A DNA stretch of 31,920 bases from a virus (taxonomy: Duplodnaviria; Heunggongvirae; Uroviricota; Caudoviricetes), in IMG/VR virus record IMGVR_UViG_2534681762_000007; one strand, 5' to 3'. This document shows, one piece after another, positions 2,490 to 30,801 of the stretch. The notes beneath the pieces are model-generated. The model was given only the letters and a program-made list of their open reading frames with translations, did no database searches and was not told where the DNA came from. Both the position numbers and the translations under genes were made by a program. Position 1 is the stretch's first letter, and the number at the start of each line of letters is the position of its first letter.

Positions 2490-2623
2490 TTCTGATCCTC
2501 TTCAAAAGGCTACCTGTTACTGGTCGATTTAAGTCAACCTTTACCGCTGATTCGTGGAACAGATATTCTCTTCCATCCTTAACCGGAGGAGGGAATATCC
2601 TGCATTCGGGTAATGACTCCAAC

Positions 2624-3127
2624 TTATTGATAGTGTTTTATGTTCAGATAATGCCCGATGACTTTGTCATGCAGCTCCACCGATTTTGAGAACGACAGCG
2701 ACTTCCGTCCCAGCCGTGCCAGGTGCTGCCTCAGATTCAGGTTATGCCGCTCAATTCGCTGCGTATATCGCTTGCTGATTACGTGCAGCTTTCCCTTCAG
2801 GCGGGATTCATACAGCGGCCAGCCATCCGTCATCCATATCACCACGTCAAAGGGTGACAGCAGGCTCATAAGACGCCCCAGCGTCGCCATAGTGCGTTCA
2901 CCGAATACGTGCGCAACAACCGTCTTCCGGAGACTGTCATACGCGTAAAACAGCCAGCGCTGGCGCGATTTAGCCCCGACATAGCCCCACTGTTCGTCCA
3001 TTTCCGCGCAGACGATGACGTCACTGCCCGGCTGTATGCGCGAGGTTACCGACTGCGGCCTGAGTTTTTTAAGTGACGTAAAATCGTGTTGAGGCCAACG
3101 CCCATAATGCGGGCAGTTGCCCGGCAT
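2624..3127 (-). CDS. insB: IS1 InsB (transposase catalytic part, made as InsAB' by frameshift)
   Basis: 167-aa [67 protein letters not shown]... typical IS1 InsB. Confidence 0.93.
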
Positions 3128-3321
3128 CCAACGCCATTCATGGCCATATCAATGATTTTCTGGTGCGTACCGGGTTGAGAAGCGGTGTAAGTGAACTGCA
3201 GTTGCCATGTTTTACGGCAGTGAGAGCAGAGATAGCGCTGATGTCCGGCGGTGCTTTTGCCGTTACGCACCACCCCGTCAGTAGCTGAACAGGAGGGACA
3301 GCTGATAGAAACAGAAGCCAC
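3046..3321 (-). CDS. insA: IS1 InsA (transposition inhibitor / N-terminal part of transposase)
   Basis: 91-aa [46 protein letters not shown]... typical IS1 InsA with zinc finger. Confidence 0.93.
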
Positions 3322-3486
3322 TGGAGCACCTCAAAAACACCATCATACACTAAATCAGTAAGTTGACAGCATCACCCTGCATTCGCGCACCCATCGACGA
3401 ACTGTTTCAAGGCTTCTTGGGCGTCGCTGGCGAGCGTTCCACTCCTGAAGTGTCAAGTACATCGCAAAGTCTCCGCAATTACACGC

Positions 3487-3510
3487 AAGAAAAAACCGCC
3501 ATCAGGCGGC
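3487..3510 (-). terminator. Candidate intrinsic terminator for leftward transcripts upstream of xis
   Basis: Hairpin CCGCC-ATCA-GGCGG (3496..3509) flanked by an A-run on the plus strand (T-run on the minus strand); some Ts also follow on the plus strand. Confidence 0.4.
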
Positions 3511-3751
3511 TTGGTGTTCTTTCAGTTCTTCAATTCGAATATTGGTTACGTCTGCATGTGCTATCTGCGCCCACAGCATCCAGTGGTCATAGCAGTCGCT
3601 GATGTTCTCGGCTTCGATAACTCTGTTGAATGGTTCTCCATTCTATTCACCTGTGACTCGGAAGTGCATTTATCATCTCCATAAAAAAAACTCGCCGTAG
3701 CGAGTTCAGATATAATTTTCACCAAAGGCAGTAGTTGCTTTATGCTAAGAA

Positions 3752-4180
3752 TTATTCAATATCTATTCCTGTAATATCTTTTATTTTTTTTCTTGCAAAG
3801 CCTTTTGCTAGTGATTTTGAAACACTCATAAGAGTACTAATCCCCTCATCCTTAAAGTTTGTTTTTATAGCTTGCCAGACCTCCTTTTGACGTAAGTCAG
3901 CAATAAAATCATGCCCTCTTGCTGTCAACCTCAGTGGTACTTCGATCCAACTATATTCAACACCTTCCCCTAACTCGTTGGACATTATATGACCGAACCC
4001 AGGTTTTCCATCAACCCTAACTATTAATTCGTAGTCACATAATAATCGCATATGGAAAATAAAATTTTGGTCATATCTATTAAAGCCATTATCCTCTAGT
4101 TCACTAAGCATCGTGTCAGGGCCATAAGTTTTTTCGAATGCGATAAGTAGATCTTTTAGATATTGCTGGTCTAATTTCAT
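3752..4180 (-). CDS. Hypothetical 142-aa cytoplasmic protein in AT-rich int-proximal accessory cassette
   Basis: Clean ORF MKLDQQYLKDLLIAFEKTYGPDTMLSELEDNGF... with GGAGG Shine-Dalgarno about 6 nt upstream of ATG; no homolog recognised by eye. Confidence 0.6.
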   Translation of the reverse strand: MKLDQQYLKDLLIAFEKTYGPDTMLSELEDNGFNRYDQNFIFHMRLLCDYELIVRVDGKPGFGHIMSNELGEGVEYSWIEVPLRLTARGHDFIADLRQKEVWQAIKTNFKDEGISTLMSVSKSLAKGFARKKIKDITGIDIE

Positions 4181-4840
4181 TGCCGCCTCCGTGACATGTC
4201 ACAGAGATTTATATCATTAATTTTGTTTCGTGCCAGCCTTTGGTCACCCAGTATTGTGAGTCACCATTACACGGGCATGAATTAACAGGAACTCTCTCGC
4301 CGCACTTACGGCAACGTTTTCTGCTAATCGATTTTATACGCCAGCGCACACGTGCATCATCCTGGCGGCTCAGTAACGCTATGTACTCACCAAACTCGTA
4401 AGGCGCACGCCTGAAGCGGCGCGTGGCTCAGTTACGCTCCAGCATTTCAATTTCCTGAGCATCAAGTACAAGCTCCAGCTTACGCATACCGGATGATGCT
4501 TGCTTGGCTCTCTGATCGGCTTTGCGCTCTGCTGCTGATTTAGTCATTCTGCTTTTCCTGCATCAGGAGAAAGACAATCATGGCGGCGCGGATACTTCCG
4601 GTATCTTTTTACGCGATATTACCCTTCAATGACACATACAAGAAGACAGCCATCAGCAGGAATGAGTGAGGAATCGACAACCAGTAACGCTTAATTATCT
4701 ATAGTGTCGTATTTGCTTCATAAAATATGGCGAATAACACAAAGCCCGCAGCAGCTCATTGTGCGGACTTTTCTTATACTTACTTCCTGGAGATAATTCT
4801 ATGGAGGCATTAAATTAATGCTGTCATTGGTAATATCATA

Positions 4841-5455
4841 TTATCTAAAAGTCTTTCCACTTTTAACGTCTAGATATATTCTGTTCGACAACGTCATTCC
4901 TCCGCAATATGTGAAATAGATGTTTTCACCCTTATTGCTTGATGCCATCCACCCTCCAACTTCCTTAAAATCGCTCTCCGTGCAGACACCTTCACTTATT
5001 AACTTCCTAGCTGCCGAAGAAAACTCTTTTTTGTATATACGGTAGTCATCAGATCCTTTGATTAAGGTATCATTTCTGCTCGCATTTTCAGCAGGATCTG
5101 ATGGCCTTTCACTGCTAAGATCACTAAGTTTAACCCATTCTGAAAACTTGCCATTAACGATTCCGTTTTTTCTTGTGCAGGATTTATTACCTTCTTTAAT
5201 ATATTCGCTTTCCCCTCCCACACATGAGGCTGAATATGGCTCAGTTATACGAACCCATTCACCTTTTTTTTCTAGAAAATCTACGCCTTCCCTGAAAAAT
5301 AGTTTCCCAGCCACTCCACATTTACTTGAAGGGCAGGTATGTCTTTCCGTTCGATCAACAACAACCCAAAGTTTTGATTCATTTTTTGCCATTGCCGATG
5401 GTATTTGAGATGAGACAATTAACGTAAGCCCTAAAATTAGTGTTGATTTTTTCAT
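4841..5455 (-). CDS. Hypothetical secreted Cys-containing 204-aa protein (signal peptide, no lipobox)
   Basis: N-terminus MKKSTLILGLTLIVSSQIPSAMA-KNE is a classic Sec signal peptide; AAGGAAAT Shine-Dalgarno before ATG at 5455; six Cys in mature part; AT-rich. Confidence 0.65.
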   Translation of the reverse strand: MKKSTLILGLTLIVSSQIPSAMAKNESKLWVVVDRTERHTCPSSKCGVAGKLFFREGVDFLEKKGEWVRITEPYSASCVGGESEYIKEGNKSCTRKNGIVNGKFSEWVKLSDLSSERPSDPAENASRNDTLIKGSDDYRIYKKEFSSAARKLISEGVCTESDFKEVGGWMASSNKGENIYFTYCGGMTLSNRIYLDVKSGKTFR

Positions 5456-5705
5456 TGTAATTTCCTTTTACTTTTTACAAAGCATTTAATCATGACTGAT
5501 TATCTCTAAGCGTAGTAACAGCCTTGTGCGAAACATGTTACCAAATCGCCATTTCAGTGTATCCACAGTTAGGCTGCCACTTCAAGGATTCCTAGTTACA
5601 TGGTACGTAAGCGTAATATCCCGTTGGTTGGCAGGTAATAACTCTGATCAATTCTCCCTTGTCTTTTGCTCTTACGTATGCAAATCTTGTACACTCAACC
5701 TAGGC

Positions 5706-6008
5706 CTACAGTTCAGCAATACGCTTACTTCCATCCGAGATAACACCTTCGTAATATTCACGCTGCTCGTTGAGTTTTGATTTTGCTGCTTCCAGTTCAA
5801 CGCGCAGCTTTCCTACCGTTAGCGCAATTTCCTCGTTCTCCTGGTCGCGGCGTTTGATGTATTGCTGGTTTCTTTCCCGCTCATCCAGCAGTTCCAGCAC
5901 AATCGATGGTGTTACCAATTCATGGAAAAGGTCTGCGTCAAATCCCCAGTCGTCATGCATTGCCTGCTCTGCCGCTTCACGCAGTGCCTGAGAGTTAATT
6001 TCGCTCAC
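5706..6008 (-). CDS. ea22: Ea22-like protein, N-terminal ~100 aa only (C-terminal part replaced by accessory cassette)
   Basis: MSEINSQALREAAEQAMHDDWGFDADLFHELVTPSIVLELLDERERNQQYIKRRDQENE... matches my memory of the lambda Ea22 N-terminus; ORF stops at 5706 where lambda-like DNA ends. Confidence 0.6.
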   Translation of the reverse strand: MSEINSQALREAAEQAMHDDWGFDADLFHELVTPSIVLELLDERERNQQYIKRRDQENEEIALTVGKLRVELEAAKSKLNEQREYYEGVISDGSKRIAEL

Positions 6009-6226
6009 TTCGAACCTCTCTGTTTACTGATAAGCTCCAGATCTTCCTGGCAACTTGCACAAGTCCGACAACCCTGAACGACCAGGCGTCTTCGTTCATC
6101 TATCGGATCGCCACACTCACAACAATGAGTGGCAGATATAGCCTGGTGGTTCAGGCGGCGCATTTTTATTGCTGTGTTGCGCTGTAATTCTTCAATTTCT
6201 GATGCTGAATCAATGATGTCTGCCAT
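6005..6226 (-). CDS. TraR/DksA-type C4 zinc-finger protein (lambda orf61 position)
   Basis: 73-aa ORF with CCECGDPIDERRRLVVQGCRTCASC motif; position between ea22 and exo as in lambda. Confidence 0.75.
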   Translation of the reverse strand: MADIIDSASEIEELQRNTAIKMRRLNHQAISATHCCECGDPIDERRRLVVQGCRTCASCQEDLELISKQRGSK

Positions 6227-6324
6227 CTTCCATTAATCCCTGAATTGTTGGTTAATACGCTTGAGGGTGAATGCGAATAATAAAAAAGGAGCCTGTAGCT
6301 CCCTGATGATTTTGCTTTTCATGT

Positions 6325-6540
6325 TCATCGTTCCTTAAAGACGCCGTTTAACATGCCGATTGCCAGGCTTAAATGAGTCGGTGTGAATCCCATCAGCGTT
6401 ACCGTTTCGCGGTGCTTCTTCAGTACGCTACGGCAAATGTCATCGACGTTTTTATCCGGAAACTGCTGTCTGGCTTTTTTGATTTCAGAATTAGCCTGAC
6501 GGGCAATGCTGCGAAGGGCGTTTTCCTGCTGAGGTGTCAT
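6325..6540 (-). CDS. Small early-left protein (lambda orf63 position)
   Basis: 71-aa ORF from internal ATG at 6540 (MTPQQENALRSIARQANSEIKKARQQF...); the track ORF extends further upstream in the same frame. Confidence 0.55.
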   Translation of the reverse strand: MTPQQENALRSIARQANSEIKKARQQFPDKNVDDICRSVLKKHRETVTLMGFTPTHLSLAIGMLNGVFKER

Positions 6541-14772: not shown

Positions 14773-16299
14773 ATGAAAAAAGCCATAGCATATATGCGAT
14801 TTTCATCACCAGGTCAGATGTCTGGCGACTCATTAAACCGACAGAGAAGACTTATTGCTGAATGGTTAAAGGTAAATAGTGATTATTATCTTGATACCAT
14901 AACATATGAAGATTTAGGATTAAGTGCATTCAAAGGAAAGCATGCACAATCAGGAGCTTTTTCGGAATTTTTAGATGCTATAGAGCATGGTTATATATTG
15001 CCAGGAACTACATTGTTAGTTGAAAGTCTGGACAGACTTTCAAGAGAAAAAGTCGGTGAAGCGATTGAACGTCTGAAATTGATTTTGAATCACGGTATTG
15101 ATGTTATAACTCTTTGCGACAATACAGTCTATAATATTGACTCTTTGAATGAGCCATATTCATTAATAAAAGCCATACTTATAGCACAAAGGGCAAATGA
15201 AGAAAGCGAGATAAAGTCAAGTCGGGTTAAATTATCATGGAAGAAAAAACGGCAGGATGCACTGGAATCAGGTACGATTATGACGGCGTCTTGTCCGAGA
15301 TGGCTCTCCTTAGATGACAAAAGAACGGCTTTTGTTCCAGACCCCGACAGGGTGAAAACTATTGAGCTAATTTTTAAACTCAGGATGGAAAGGCGCTCAT
15401 TGAATGCAATAGCCAAGTATTTAAATGATCATGCTGTAAAGAATTTCTCAGGAAAAGAAAGTGCATGGGGACCTTCTGTAATTGAAAAATTATTAGCGAA
15501 TAAAGCTCTGATAGGTATATGCGTACCTTCATATCGTGCAAGAGGTAAAGGAATAAGTGAAATCGCTGGCTATTATCCCAGAGTCATATCAGATGATTTG
15601 TTTTACGCTGTACAGGAAATTCGGTTGGCACCTTTTGGTATTAGCAATAGTAGCAAAAATCCTATGTTGATAAATCTACTTCGAACAGTTATGAAGTGCG
15701 AGGCTTGTGGTAATACCATGATTGTTCATGCGGTATCTGGAAGTTTGCATGGCTATTATGTTTGTCCGATGAGAAGACTGCATCGATGTGACAGGCCATC
15801 AATAAAGAGAGATTTGGTTGATTATAATATCATTAATGAGTTGCTTTTTAATTGTAGTAAAATCCAACCAGTTGAAAACAAGAAAGATGCTAATGAAACT
15901 TTAGAGTTGAAAATTATTGAGCTCCAGATGAAAATTAATAATTTAATTGCTGCATTATCTGTTGCGCCTGAAGTTACCGCTATAGCAGAAAAAATCAGAG
16001 TATTAGATAAGGAATTACGAAGGGCTTCTGTATCATTAAAAACTTTGAAGAGTAAAGCGGTGAGTTCACTTGGTGATTTTCATGCTATTGACTTAACCAG
16101 TAAAAATGGGCGAGAGCTATGTCGTACACTTGCCTATAAAACATTCGAAAAAATCATAATCAATACAGATAATAAAACCTGTGATATCTATTTTATGAAT
16201 GGCATTGTTTTTAAACACTATCCTTTAATGAAAACAATATCCGCCCAGCAGGCGATAAGTACTCTCAAATATATGGTTGATGGTGAGGTTTATTTTTGA
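14773..16299 (+). CDS. ybcK: Large serine recombinase (YbcK-type, DLP12-like)
   Basis: 508-aa AT-rich ORF MKKAIAYMRFSSPGQMSGDSLNRQRRLIAEWL... with resolvase-type N-terminal catalytic Ser region and Cys-rich recombinase domain (CEACGNTM...CPMRRLHRC); matches my memory of K-12 YbcK. Confidence 0.9.
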   Translation: MKKAIAYMRFSSPGQMSGDSLNRQRRLIAEWLKVNSDYYLDTITYEDLGLSAFKGKHAQSGAFSEFLDAIEHGYILPGTTLLVESLDRLSREKVGEAIERLKLILNHGIDVITLCDNTVYNIDSLNEPYSLIKAILIAQRANEESEIKSSRVKLSWKKKRQDALESGTIMTASCPRWLSLDDKRTAFVPDPDRVKTIELIFKLRMERRSLNAIAKYLNDHAVKNFSGKESAWGPSVIEKLLANKALIGICVPSYRARGKGISEIAGYYPRVISDDLFYAVQEIRLAPFGISNSSKNPMLINLLRTVMKCEACGNTMIVHAVSGSLHGYYVCPMRRLHRCDRPSIKRDLVDYNIINELLFNCSKIQPVENKKDANETLELKIIELQMKINNLIAALSVAPEVTAIAEKIRVLDKELRRASVSLKTLKSKAVSSLGDFHAIDLTSKNGRELCRTLAYKTFEKIIINTDNKTCDIYFMNGIVFKHYPLMKTISAQQAISTLKYMVDGEVYF

Positions 16300-19801: not shown

Positions 19802-20884
19802 TTAGAACTGGTAAACCATACCTACAGCAACGATATCATCGGTAGCAACGCCAGATGCTTTCGTGAAATCGCTCTTATCAATCAGGTTGATTTTGTAGTC
19901 AACAAAAGTGGACATATTTTTGTTGAAGTAATAGGTTGCACCTACATCAACATATTCAACCAGGTCCTGATCACCCCAAACACCCAAGTCTTTTCCTTTA
20001 GAATGCAGGTAAGCAACGGATGGACGCAGGCCGAAGTCGAACTGATATTGTGCAACAGCTTCGAAGTTTTGTGCTTTGTTGGCAATATGGTTATTACCAA
20101 AAACAGTCATGTTCTGGGTTTCAGAATAGGTGGTGGCCAGATAGATGTTGTTCGCATCATATTTCAGACCAGCTGCCCATACTTCAGCATTTTGACCAGA
20201 AGCATTCAGACCGTTGTTACCGTAGATAACCTGATTATTAGTGCGATCAGATTTAGCATAGGTTGCACCCACGCCGAATCCTTCATACTCATAAGTAGTT
20301 GAGAAACCGAAACCATCGCCATTAGCTTCAGTTACTTCATTTCGGTCATTTTTGCCCTGATACTGAGCTGCAAAGTTCAGGCCATCAACCAGACCAAAGA
20401 AGTCGTTGTTACGATAAGTTGCAACACCTGTGGTGCGACCAGTCATGAATACATCTGTTTGGGTCCAGGTATCGCCACCGAATTCTGGCAGAACGTCAGT
20501 CCACGCACCGATGTCGTATGCTACACCGTAGTTACGGCCGTAATCGATTGAGCCGTAGTCACCGAATTTCAGGCCTGCAAATGCAAGACGGGTTTTGTCT
20601 TTGGAGGAACCTTGAGATTCAGCGCGGTTGCCTTTGAATTCATATTCCCACTGACCGAAACCAGTCAGTTGATCGTTGATTTGGGTTTCACCTTTGAAGC
20701 CAAGACGGGCATAAGTAGTATCACCATCATCTGCATCATTAGAGGAGAAGTAGTGCTTAGCATTAACTTTCCCGTACAGATCCAGCTTGTTACTGTCTTT
20801 ATTATAAATTTCAGCTGCCTGAGCAGACATCGCCATCAGTACTGATGCAGCTACAGCAGAAATTGCCACTGTTAATTTTTTCAT
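19802..20884 (-). CDS. nmpC: Outer-membrane general porin NmpC/Lc-type, intact
   Basis: 360-aa ORF with signal peptide [23 protein letters not shown] and C-terminal ...VAVGMVYQF; typical OmpC/OmpF-family sequence; no IS interruption. Confidence 0.92.
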
Positions 20885-28105: not shown

Positions 28106-29405
28106 TCTCCCGCATATTGCCAGTATGGCCTTTAATGAGCCGCTGATGCTTGAACCCGCCTATGCGCGGGTTTTCTTTTGTGCGCTTGCAGGCCAGCTTG
28201 GGATCAGCCGCCTGACGGATGCGGTGTCCGGCGACAGCCTGACTGCCGGAGAGGCACCCGCGGCGCTGGCGTTATCCGTTGATGATGACGGACCACGACA
28301 GGCCCGCAGTTATCAGGTCATGAACGGCATCGCCGTGCTGCCGGTGTCCGGCACGCTGGTCAGCCGGACGCGGGCGCTGCAGCCGTATTCGGGGATGACC
28401 GGTTACAACGGCATTATCGCCCGTCTGCAACAGGCTGCCAGCGATCCGATGGTGGACGGCATTCTGCTGGATATGGACACACCGGGCGGGATGGTGGCGG
28501 GAGCATTTGACTGTGCTGACATCATCGCCCGTGTGCGAGACATAAAACCGGTATGGGCGCTGGCCAACGACATGAACTGCAGTGCAGGTCAGCTGCTTGC
28601 CAGCGCCGCCTCCCGGCGTCTGGTCACGCAGACCGCCCGGACAGGCTCCATCGGCGTCATGATGGCTCACAGTAATTACGGTGCTGCGCTGGAGAAACAG
28701 GGCGTGGAAATCACACTGATTTACAGCGGCAGCCATAAGGTGGATGGCAACCCCTACAGCCATCTACCGGATGATGTCCGGGAAACACTGCAGTCCCGGA
28801 TGGATGCAACCCGCCGGATGTTTGCACAGAAGGTGTCGGCATATACCGGCCTGTCCGTGCAGGCTGTGCTGGATACCGAGGCTGCAGTGTACAGCGGTCA
28901 GGAGGCCATTGATGCCGGACTGGCTGATGAACTTGTGAACAGTACCGATGCGATCACCGTCATGCGTGATGCACTGGATGCACGTAAATCCCGTCTCTCA
29001 GGAGGGCGAATGACCAAAGAGACTCAATCAACAACTGTTTCAGCCATTGCTTCGCAGGCTGACGTTACTGGCGTGGTGCAAGCGACGGAGGGCGAGAACG
29101 CCAGCGCTGCGCAGCCGGACGTGAACGCGCAGATCACCGCAGCGGTTGCGGCAGAAAACAGTCGCATTATGGGGATCCTCAACTGTGAGGAGGCTCACGG
29201 ACGCGAAGAACAGGCATGCGTGCTGGCCGAAACCCCCGGTATGACCGTGGAAACGGCCCGCCGTATTCTGGCCGCAGCACCACAGAGTGCACAGGCGCGC
29301 AGTGACACTGCGTTGGATCGTCTGATGCAGGGGGCACCGGCACCGCTGGCTGCAGGTAACCCGGCATCTGATGCCGTTAACGATTTGCTGAACACACCAG
29401 TGTAA
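28086..29405 (+). CDS. C: Head protease/scaffold protein C (S49 peptidase family)
   Basis: 439-aa product (GTG start) TAELRNLPHIASMAFNEPLMLEPAYARVFFCALAGQLGIS... matches lambda C; currently read through from the frameshifted B as a 948-aa ORF. Confidence 0.9.
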
Positions 29406-29414
29406 GGGATGTTT

Positions 29415-29747
29415 ATGACGAGCAAAGAAACCTTTACCCATTACCAGCCGCTGGGCAACAGTGACCCGGCTCATACCGCAACCGCGCCCGGCGGGTTGAG
29501 TGCGAAAGCGCCTGCAATGACCCCGCTGATGCTGGACACCTCCACCCGTAAGCTGGTTGCGTGGGATGGCACCACCGACGGTGCTGCCGTTGGCATTCTT
29601 GCAGTTGCTGCTGACCAGACCAGCACCACACTGACGTTCTACAAGTCCGGCACGTTCCGTTATGAGGATGTGCTCTGGCCGGAGGCTGCCAGCGACGAGA
29701 CGAAAAAACGGACCGCGTTTGCCGGAACGGCAATCAGCATCGTTTAA
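29415..29747 (+). CDS. D: Head decoration protein D
   Basis: 110-aa product [110 protein letters not shown] matches lambda D. Confidence 0.95.
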
Positions 29748-29765
29748 CCTGACCCTTCATCACTA

Positions 29766-29789
29766 AAGGCCGCCTGTGCGGCTTTTTTT
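29766..29789 (+). terminator. Intrinsic terminator-like hairpin between D and E
   Basis: Stem GCCGC-CTGT-GCGGC followed by seven Ts (29783..29789). Confidence 0.65.
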
Positions 29790-29802
29790 ACGGGATTTTT
29801 TT

Positions 29803-30070
29803 ATGTCGATGTACACAACCGCCCAGCTGCTGGCGGCAAATGAGCAGAAATTTAAGTTTGATCCGCTGTTTCTGCGTCTCTTTTTCCGTGAGAGCTATCC
29901 CTTCACCACGGAGAAAGTCTATCTCTCACAAATTCCTGGACTGGTAAACATGGCGCTGTACGTTTCGCCAATTGTTTCCGGTGAGGTTATCCGTTCCCGT
30001 GGCGGCTCCACCTCTGAATTTACGCCGGGTTATGTCAAGCCGAAGCATGAGGTGAATCCGCAGATGACCC
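29803..30070 (+). pseudogene. E: Major capsid protein E, only N-terminal ~89 codons; truncated by IS66-family insertion
   Basis: MSMYTTAQLLAANEQKFKFDPLFLRLFFRESYPFTTEKVYLSQIPGLVNMALYVSPIVSGEVIRSRGGSTSEFTPGYVKPKHEVNPQMT matches lambda E; sequence then switches to IS DNA beginning GTAACCGGCTC at 30071. Confidence 0.88.
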
Positions 30071-30123
30071 GTAACCGGCTCATTTAAACCGTCTGGTCTG
30101 TTTCCTCCGGCTCTACAAAAATA

Positions 30124-30801
30124 ATGTCCATCATTTTTAATGGACACTATCGTATGAAACACCGGACCTGGATCACTGAAGCTTTACGTCTTCACTTTGA
30201 AGAACATTTACCCCGGGTTGTGGCCGGGCGTCGCCTGGGTGTACCAAAATCAACAGTTTGTAGTATGTTCGTGCGCTTTCGGAGAGCTGGCCTTTCGTGG
30301 CCTTTGCCCGCAGGCATGTCGGAGCAGGAACTTGATGCCTGCCTTTACGGACAATTTTCCACGGTACCAGTCGTACGTCCTGAAAGCACCGTTATATCCG
30401 AAGCCCCCGTGGTAAAAAACCGTCCCCGGCGGCCCAACTTCCCTTATGAGTTTAAAATCGCCTTAGTGGAGCAGTCACTGCAGCCCGGAGCCTGTGTGGC
30501 GCAGATCGCCCGGGAAAACGGAATCAACGATAACCTGCTCTTCAACTGGCGCCATCAATACCGGAAAGGTGGCCTGCTGCCTTCCGGAAAAAATATGCCG
30601 GCACTGCTTCCCGTGACGTTAACGCCGGAGCCGGATAATAAAATCCCGGCCCCCGCACAGGAACCAGAGCAGATAAATACACCGTCCGACAGTCTGTGTT
30701 GTGAGCTGGTTCTGCCGGCCGGAACTCTCAGGCTTAAAGGTAAACTGACGCCGGCGTTATTACAGACACTTATCCGCGAAATAAAAGGGAGCAGCCACTG
30801 A
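30124..30801 (+). CDS. IS66-family accessory protein TnpA (orf1)
   Basis: ORF containing ...RPNFPYEFKIALVEQSLQPGACVAQIARENGINDNLLFNWRHQYRKGG... typical of IS66 orf1; start uncertain (ATG 30124 or 30154); stop overlaps next ATG (ATGA). Confidence 0.75.
   Translation: MSIIFNGHYRMKHRTWITEALRLHFEEHLPRVVAGRRLGVPKSTVCSMFVRFRRAGLSWPLPAGMSEQELDACLYGQFSTVPVVRPESTVISEAPVVKNRPRRPNFPYEFKIALVEQSLQPGACVAQIARENGINDNLLFNWRHQYRKGGLLPSGKNMPALLPVTLTPEPDNKIPAPAQEPEQINTPSDSLCCELVLPAGTLRLKGKLTPALLQTLIREIKGSSH

Follow-up and report, generated by a model that had tools for sequence, protein, structure and literature searches.

The window analyzed here, the whole 31,920-nucleotide stretch of the IMG/VR virus record IMGVR_UViG_2534681762_000007 (Duplodnaviria; Heunggongvirae; Uroviricota; Caudoviricetes), contains a lambda-like prophage in which part of the exo-xis region has given way to a foreign insert with two intact genes, one for a 204-amino-acid (aa) protein with a predicted export signal and the other for a 142-aa member of the DUF2513 family. 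With moderate confidence, we read this insert as a mosaic accessory block that was recombined into the variable exo-xis region and that comprises two independent, selected cargo genes with a dead middle segment. Its foreign base composition, the replacement of lambda genes, and the occurrence of each of the two genes alone in unrelated mobile elements together argue for acquired cargo. The features of the insert and its right border are as follows.

3717–5708, minus strand: foreign insert of 1992 bp, delimited by blastn against lambda NC_001416
5706–6008, minus strand: N-terminal 100 codons of ea22, with a new stop at the junction; an incomplete pseudogene in RefSeq
5556–5585, minus strand: predicted promoter-like site, TTGAAG-18 nt-TACACT, 5′ of the 204-aa gene, with 8/12 consensus matches
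4841–5455, minus strand: gene for the 204-aa putatively exported protein (phrog_8310), with a signal peptide at residues 1–23, an SH3b-like domain at about 27–110, and a C-terminal alpha/beta domain at about 125–204
4741–4771, minus strand: predicted terminator-like hairpin, followed by UUUGUGUUAUU, 70 nt past the stop codon of the 204-aa gene (dG -16.8 kcal/mol, z -2.15)
4560–4690, minus strand: remnant of a humD/umuD-like S24 peptidase gene, corresponding to about residues 47–85 of HumD, with the ends missing and an extra stop
4209–4547, minus strand: phrog_536 pseudogene for a 112-aa Cys-rich protein, with codon 40 changed from TGT to TGA (4428–4430)
3752–4180, minus strand: gene for the 142-aa DUF2513 protein (PF10711, phrog_585), assigned by Pfam and PHROG matches

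On the left, window positions 3376–3716 correspond to lambda 28992–29333 at 95.6% identity, and on the right, 5709–6400 correspond to lambda 30096–30787 at 97.5%. These borders fall within 6 bases of those in the initial annotation, a reading of the DNA made from its letters alone, which had lambda sequence stopping at about 3710 and resuming at about 5706. The 762 bp of lambda for which the insert substitutes (29334–30095) include ea8.5 (29374–29655) and the 3′ 82 codons of ea22 (29847–30395), confirming both the proposed replacement of these genes and the cutting of the Ea22-like open reading frame (ORF) to about 100 aa. One account (PMC10834534) describes a coiled coil in Ea22 along with a C-terminal domain and a short N-terminal one; hence, its truncation to 100 codons has removed the C-terminal domain. 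That Ea22 C-termini diverge among lambdoid phages is already documented (PMC7093339), and the exo-xis region as a whole is non-essential and variable in sequence (PMC7093339, PMC10834534, PMC8614690). Other lambdoid phages carry different cargo at this position. Compared with lambda, the slot and orientation of ea8.5/ea22 are alike, whereas ea8.5 is gone, Ea22 lacks its C-terminal domain, and the substitute genes are unrelated to either.

The G+C content differs between segments of the insert, being 36.6% in 3717–4208, 48% in 4209–4700, and 38.5% in 4701–5708, against 47–48% in the lambda flanks. Given this middle segment, the insert is not uniformly AT-rich, and its earlier description as an AT-rich block is apt for the two outer segments but not for the one between them. 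No direct or inverted repeats bounding the insert were found, which argues that it is neither a transposon nor an integron-like cassette, and an Rfam scan of 3300–6300 returned no RNA family. Both minus-strand ORFs of the initial annotation (3752–4180 and 4841–5455) are exact in their coordinates and possess good ribosome-binding sites: reading from the sequence, GGAGG lies 7 nt 5′ of the ATG of the 142-aa gene and AAGGA 8 nt 5′ of that of the 204-aa gene. In RefSeq, a genome with a 99.9%-identical cassette carries both as intact coding sequences, identical to those of the window.

The insert is a patchwork put together by recombination from at least three joined pieces, and not a single two-gene unit. 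Along the minus strand, about 110 bp without assignment and a 130-bp leader are followed by the 204-aa gene (5455–4841), the hairpin (4771–4741), the humD/umuD-like fragment (about 4690–4560), the PHROG 536 gene (4547–4209), and the 142-aa gene (4180–3752); the two decayed genes thus occupy the 660 bp that separate the two intact ones. Among deposited phages, the whole insert is present in Chlobot only, and the middle piece alone (window 4216–4605) is common to phiV10-, TL-2011b-, and epsilon15-like phages at about 90%. The acquired cargo module originally proposed therefore stands as regards foreign composition and independent mobility, but has to be revised from one two-gene cassette to a composite with two dead genes; these, the DUF2513 membership, and an IS1 element in xis just upstream had been overlooked.

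The peptidase remnant matches the HumD family model only at positions 47–99 of 129, scoring 53 bits against a cutoff of 120 (the Chlobot copy has an E-value of 2.4e-14). The phrog_536 copy, from a family labeled ‘transcriptional regulator’ in PHROG and flagged ‘internal stop’ in RefSeq, is further altered in the window by C50Y, C99Y, and G80R; intact versions of the gene are present in phage Chlobot, on plasmid pA18-1, and in strain PK8568. Of 40 cassette-bearing loci, 21 have a broken or partial copy, among alleles of about 100% and about 97% identity alike, which may reflect repeated loss. In the Chlobot deposit (3811–4289), the intact 112-aa gene is split into a 46-aa ‘transcriptional regulator’ and a 105-aa ‘UmuD-like protein’, the latter reading through the humD remnant, and this is probably a mis-annotation. 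A umuD/humD-like gene is also found near the 204-aa gene in three unrelated elements, namely the lambda cassette (window 4560–5455), a P1-like plasmid, and a Pseudomonas prophage (loci L072, 5003–6168, and L069, 4444–7633), a proximity that could be a coincidence or could stem from a common source module.

While their neighbors decay, the 204-aa and DUF2513 genes are intact and under purifying selection. In the cassette-bearing loci, the former is intact in 38 of 40 and the latter in 37 of 39. The ratios of nonsynonymous to synonymous polymorphism (pN/pS), computed by comparison with the Chlobot and PK8568 alleles (96% identical) and based on just 12–15 substitutions per gene, are 0.15–0.18 and 0.35–0.41, respectively. 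Damaged genes in the window include xis (by IS1), orf-55 (W9>stop), ea22, and phrog_536. Neither intact ORF is a lambda housekeeping gene; their intactness in about 95% of the 40 loci, the pN/pS values of 0.15–0.41, and the decay around them indicate that the two behave as maintained cargo, and the objections foreseen in the initial annotation, a housekeeping identity or neutral evolution, did not materialize.

Of 5426 complete E. coli genomes, 130 have the full cassette, 132 the 204-aa gene, and 183 this DUF2513 allele; the E. coli cassette copies are 96–100% identical, and the cassette genes are already annotated, as hypothetical or DUF2513, in more than 130 public genomes. Furthermore, 16 large plasmids from Citrobacter, Klebsiella, Enterobacter, and E. 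coli have the cassette and a piece of the exo-xis region beside IS5, as in pA18-1 (NZ_CP022274; locus L071, 7001–10226), where the cassette and exo-xis genes are near IS5, an ars operon, and a Rac-derived trkG. These plasmid copies are a prophage fragment captured onto plasmids.

The independent mobility of the 204-aa gene is apparent from the diversity of elements that carry its relatives. Those of 60–68% identity lie directly 3′ of tyrosine integrases in Pseudomonas islands of about 5 kb (L004 and L015–L018), which hold the integrase, the homolog, and 4–5 genes without a significant family match, the neighbors showing weak KilA-N-like matches only; in L004, Pyocin_S and immunity genes are found beyond the integrase, outside the island. 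In an Aeromonas prophage, a relative is flanked by the genes for the Q antiterminator and the holin; in another Pseudomonas prophage, it adjoins endolysin and Rz-like genes; and in a P1-like phage-plasmid of E. fergusonii it is positioned after humD. The last copy has the gene and about 130 bp upstream in common with the window, with both hexamers of the promoter-like site unchanged and the spacer varying. As the upstream regions of distant homologs cannot be aligned, the motif is checkable in the E. fergusonii copy only. The DUF2513 gene, in turn, is conserved across Enterobacterales, is found by itself in Citrobacter prophages, within the nin region, and is left in some E. coli prophages after deletion of the 204-aa gene.

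With its promoter-like site and hairpin, the 204-aa gene has the layout of a moron, its separate transcription being predicted; the earlier suggestion of a promoter of its own has gained plausibility from the invariant TTGAAG-18-TACACT hexamers within the 130-bp leader that accompanies the gene. Morons are self-contained cargo genes, of which lambda bor and lom are examples, and the concept is said to derive from the comparative genomics of HK97 and HK022. Like bor and lom, the 204-aa gene is foreign in composition, lies between genes that are contiguous in relatives, has predicted promoter- and terminator-like signals, codes for a likely envelope product, and is found in unrelated mobile elements. 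In contrast to them, it shows no sequence relation to either, occupies the early-left exo-xis site and not the late region, and came within a patchwork carrying dead genes, and its expression in the lysogen is a prediction.

By inspection and hydropathy, the 204-aa protein begins with a signal peptide of the Sec type (MKK, the core STLILGLTLIV, and SSQIPSAMA/K) without a lipobox, and has cysteines at positions 41, 46, 78, 93, 158, and 184 that are unchanged across 35 homologs of 42–87% identity, in agreement with the earlier account of a secreted protein with six cysteines. A lipobox replaces the signal peptide in several relatives, pointing to conservation of the extracytoplasmic compartment. 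The N-terminal domain has an SH3-like beta-barrel fold of the SH3b type, and 34 of the 35 relatives match an SH3 family at E<=1 (best 5.9e-8). Relative to the SH3b domains (PF08239) of endolysins, lysostaphin, and NlpC/P60 hydrolases, that of the 204-aa protein comes without a catalytic domain, carries an insertion of about 35 residues that would be disulfide-bonded (about 70–106), and is predicted to reside in a Gram-negative periplasm.

The C-terminal domain, of about 80 residues, is marked by the pattern SDD[YF]...GG[WF]...YFTYCGG and one conserved, predicted disulfide. It is an undescribed domain, with no Pfam model and no structural relative; the sole PDB profile matches, to designed TIM-barrel helices, are attributed to the composition of amphipathic helix 138–154 and were set aside as artefactual. 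Phage contigs also encode proteins of about 100 aa in which a signal peptide or lipobox is joined to the C-terminal domain only (L063, 4917–5225; L067, 886–1215), the L063 gene starting 3 bp after that for a small membrane protein with two transmembrane segments. An exhaustive HMMER search, which covered 1.84 billion representatives, recovered 871 clusters at 50% identity for the two-domain family, which ranges over Escherichia, Pseudomonas, Aeromonas, and many metagenomes. Its fusion partners in this set are further SH3b repeats, ankyrin repeats, a zinc ribbon, and unannotated N-terminal extensions, and no family member fused to an enzyme was found there. The PHROG family, phrog_8310, carries no function, and the literature searched holds no mention of the RefSeq accessions of the 204-aa and 142-aa proteins. 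ORFs on the plus strand antisense to the 204-aa gene (e.g., 5058–5408) are unsupported; the Chlobot record annotates one such ORF and RefSeq none.

The 142-aa protein is a clear full-length member of DUF2513 (model positions 1–100 of 100; 42.7 bits, the cutoff being 29.6) and of phrog_585 (E-value 7e-34). It had previously been left as a protein of unknown function; a family can now be assigned, which itself is without a known function, so that the functional part of that statement still holds. The domain is probably a winged helix, as suggested by sub-threshold matches to wHTH-PRTase_assc in 11 of 28 members (best E-value 0.0011), HTH_12, and HTH_20, and the protein is most likely a cytoplasmic nucleic-acid-binding factor of this fold. 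No sequence relative was found in the PDB, a full-text literature search on the DUF2513 name returned nothing, and none of the 120 matches listed of 500 in a profile search is a named relative. No functional link is seen between this gene and the 204-aa gene.

These observations suggest a mechanism in which the 204-aa gene would operate as a self-contained moron, comprising the promoter-like site, the gene, and the terminator-like hairpin. Its product would be exported by Sec and cleaved after Ala23, steadied by three disulfides (C41–C46, C78–C93, and C158–C184, paired here by their spacing), and held on peptidoglycan by the SH3b domain, such that the C-terminal domain could then engage a periplasmic partner as the working end. 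The DUF2513 protein, for its part, would be a small cytoplasmic winged-helix factor that binds nucleic acids and is made with the early (pL) transcript. We tentatively raise the possibility that the benefit lies in protecting the lysogen at the envelope, by excluding incoming phage or wall-degrading attack. The envelope role put forward at the outset is upheld insofar as the Sec and disulfide sequence features and the SH3b fold make the site of action well founded; receptor masking, superinfection exclusion, and host interaction, the activities then offered, remain guesses and drew no support from our searches, which gave no match to defense, exclusion-lipoprotein, or lysozyme-inhibitor families and no informative fusion.

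Several points weigh against parts of this interpretation. The 204-aa protein itself scores 16 bits against SH3_3, under the gathering cutoff of 27, and SH3b domains also bind ligands other than peptidoglycan. It has no match in NCBIfam, and at E<=1 none of the four cassette proteins matches a family in PADLOC-DB 2.0 (0 families). The promoter match is weak (8/12, with an 18-nt spacer) and under the scan threshold, the winged-helix matches of DUF2513 are all sub-threshold, and the substitutions behind the pN/pS values are few. Moreover, metagenomes contain non-mobile chromosomal lipoprotein relatives of the 204-aa protein, at 60–68% identity, by which token the main role of the family may be ordinary envelope housekeeping.

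Small phage proteins that act at the envelope are a further point of comparison. T5 Llp is a superinfection-exclusion lipoprotein (bioRxiv 10.64898/2026.03.26.714494), and such lipoproteins, among them the Cor protein of phi80/T1, are located in the periplasm or at the outer membrane. The 204-aa protein resembles Llp and Cor as a small, Cys-containing phage protein that is apparently exported, its action at the envelope being predicted, and lipoproteins also feature among some of its relatives and the stand-alone C-terminal-domain proteins of phage contigs. However, it matches none of the known exclusion lipoproteins of the Cor/Llp type, with no detectable homology, lacks a lipobox, is three times larger, and has no known link to a receptor. 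In an unlikely reading, the C-terminal domain would be an undescribed secreted module that phages and islands use, either alone or with SH3b tethering it to the wall, as an exclusion or immunity factor of a new periplasmic class. Should an SH3b protein of this kind indeed guard lysogens at the wall, a widespread family would join the short list of periplasmic phage-exclusion and immunity factors, and a function would be gained for a domain that has neither a Pfam model nor a structural relative.

The 204-aa protein might instead work in lytic growth, in which case it would be expressed from the early pL transcript and exported so as to adjust the wall or lysis timing, for instance by protecting from premature lysis, from lysis from without, or from secondary adsorption during progeny production. 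The gene does lie in the pL operon in the orientation of exo-bet-gam and int, exo-xis genes are among the earliest transcribed according to PMC10834534, and relatives adjoin lysis genes in two other prophages. We nevertheless regard this role as rather unlikely, for the gene has its own conserved promoter-like site and terminator-like hairpin, is kept intact though xis carries IS1 and the neighbors decay, and has homologs in the Pseudomonas integrase islands of about 5 kb, which are without lysis genes.

Quite unlikely, in our estimate, is that the protein is an orphan immunity factor or inhibitor directed at wall-degrading toxins that competitors deliver to the periplasm, such as type VI secretion system (T6SS) amidases or muramidases, lysozymes, and pesticin- or colicin M-like bacteriocins. 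A small, disulfide-bonded periplasmic or lipoprotein family on mobile elements would suit such a function, and at the same site lambdoid phage ev099 has a gene that its annotation assigns to the LprI family of lysozyme inhibitors. Yet, there is no sequence or fold match of the 204-aa protein to Ivy, MliC/PliC, PliG, LprI, or the known Tai/Tsi immunity families, and none of the contexts examined has a toxin or T6SS gene next to it, the Pyocin_S and immunity genes of L004 being outside the island.

Two further alternatives are disfavored by the evidence. It is very improbable that the cassette is a neutral hitch-hiker with ORFs intact merely from recent, clonal spread: the near-identity of the E. 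coli copies, the few substitutions behind pN/pS, and the visible decay of adjacent genes would fit, but over the same time and in the same loci 21 of 40 copies of the middle gene have become broken or partial and just 2 of 40 and 2 of 39 copies of its flanking genes, all six cysteines are kept at 60–68% identity across Escherichia, Pseudomonas, and Aeromonas, and DUF2513 is conserved across Enterobacterales. Equally hard to credit is a single system of DUF2513, phrog_536, and the 204-aa gene, with, for instance, regulators controlling an exported effector: the three are co-linear on one strand, and Chlobot, the plasmid copies, and strain PK8568 have all of them intact, but any one can be found without the other two: Pseudomonas, Aeromonas, and P1-like elements have just the 204-aa gene, Citrobacter prophages and E. 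coli deletion variants just DUF2513, and phiV10- and epsilon15-like phages just phrog_536, and in the window phrog_536 is dead while the other two persist, with the humD fragment also separating them.

The reading of the insert as a recombined mosaic with two cargo genes thus documents a well-defined junction in the lambda exo-xis region, where cargo is kept while xis, orf-55, ea22, and phrog_536 decay. This is phage cargo of an ordinary type at a site already known to vary, useful for annotation and not surprising to phage biologists; only the undescribed C-terminal domain is out of the ordinary.

The prophage is integrated at attB, the window starting in the E. coli chromosome (ybhC, 1–1284), and its gene order runs int (1419–2489), xis, the exo-xis region, exo, bet, and gam. 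Further along the same prophage are a 360-aa ORF at 19802–20884 on the minus strand and a 508-aa ORF at 14773–16299 on the plus strand; relatives matching that stretch have an OmpC-like porin and a ybcK-type recombinase annotated somewhere along it. To the left of the insert lie the following features.

2609–3375, minus strand: IS1 (insA/insB) inside xis, placed by its flanks against an uninterrupted relative
3502–3669, minus strand: homolog of lambda orf-55 (lambdap35), with W9>stop
3688–3707, minus strand: lambda-derived hairpin and T-run, directly beyond the left junction of the insert

When matched to the uninterrupted relative, the flanks of IS1 overlap by about 10 bp, which fits a target-site duplication, and with xis split in this manner the prophage probably cannot excise. 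The W9>stop change of orf-55 is also flagged in the RefSeq genome with the 99.9%-identical cassette.

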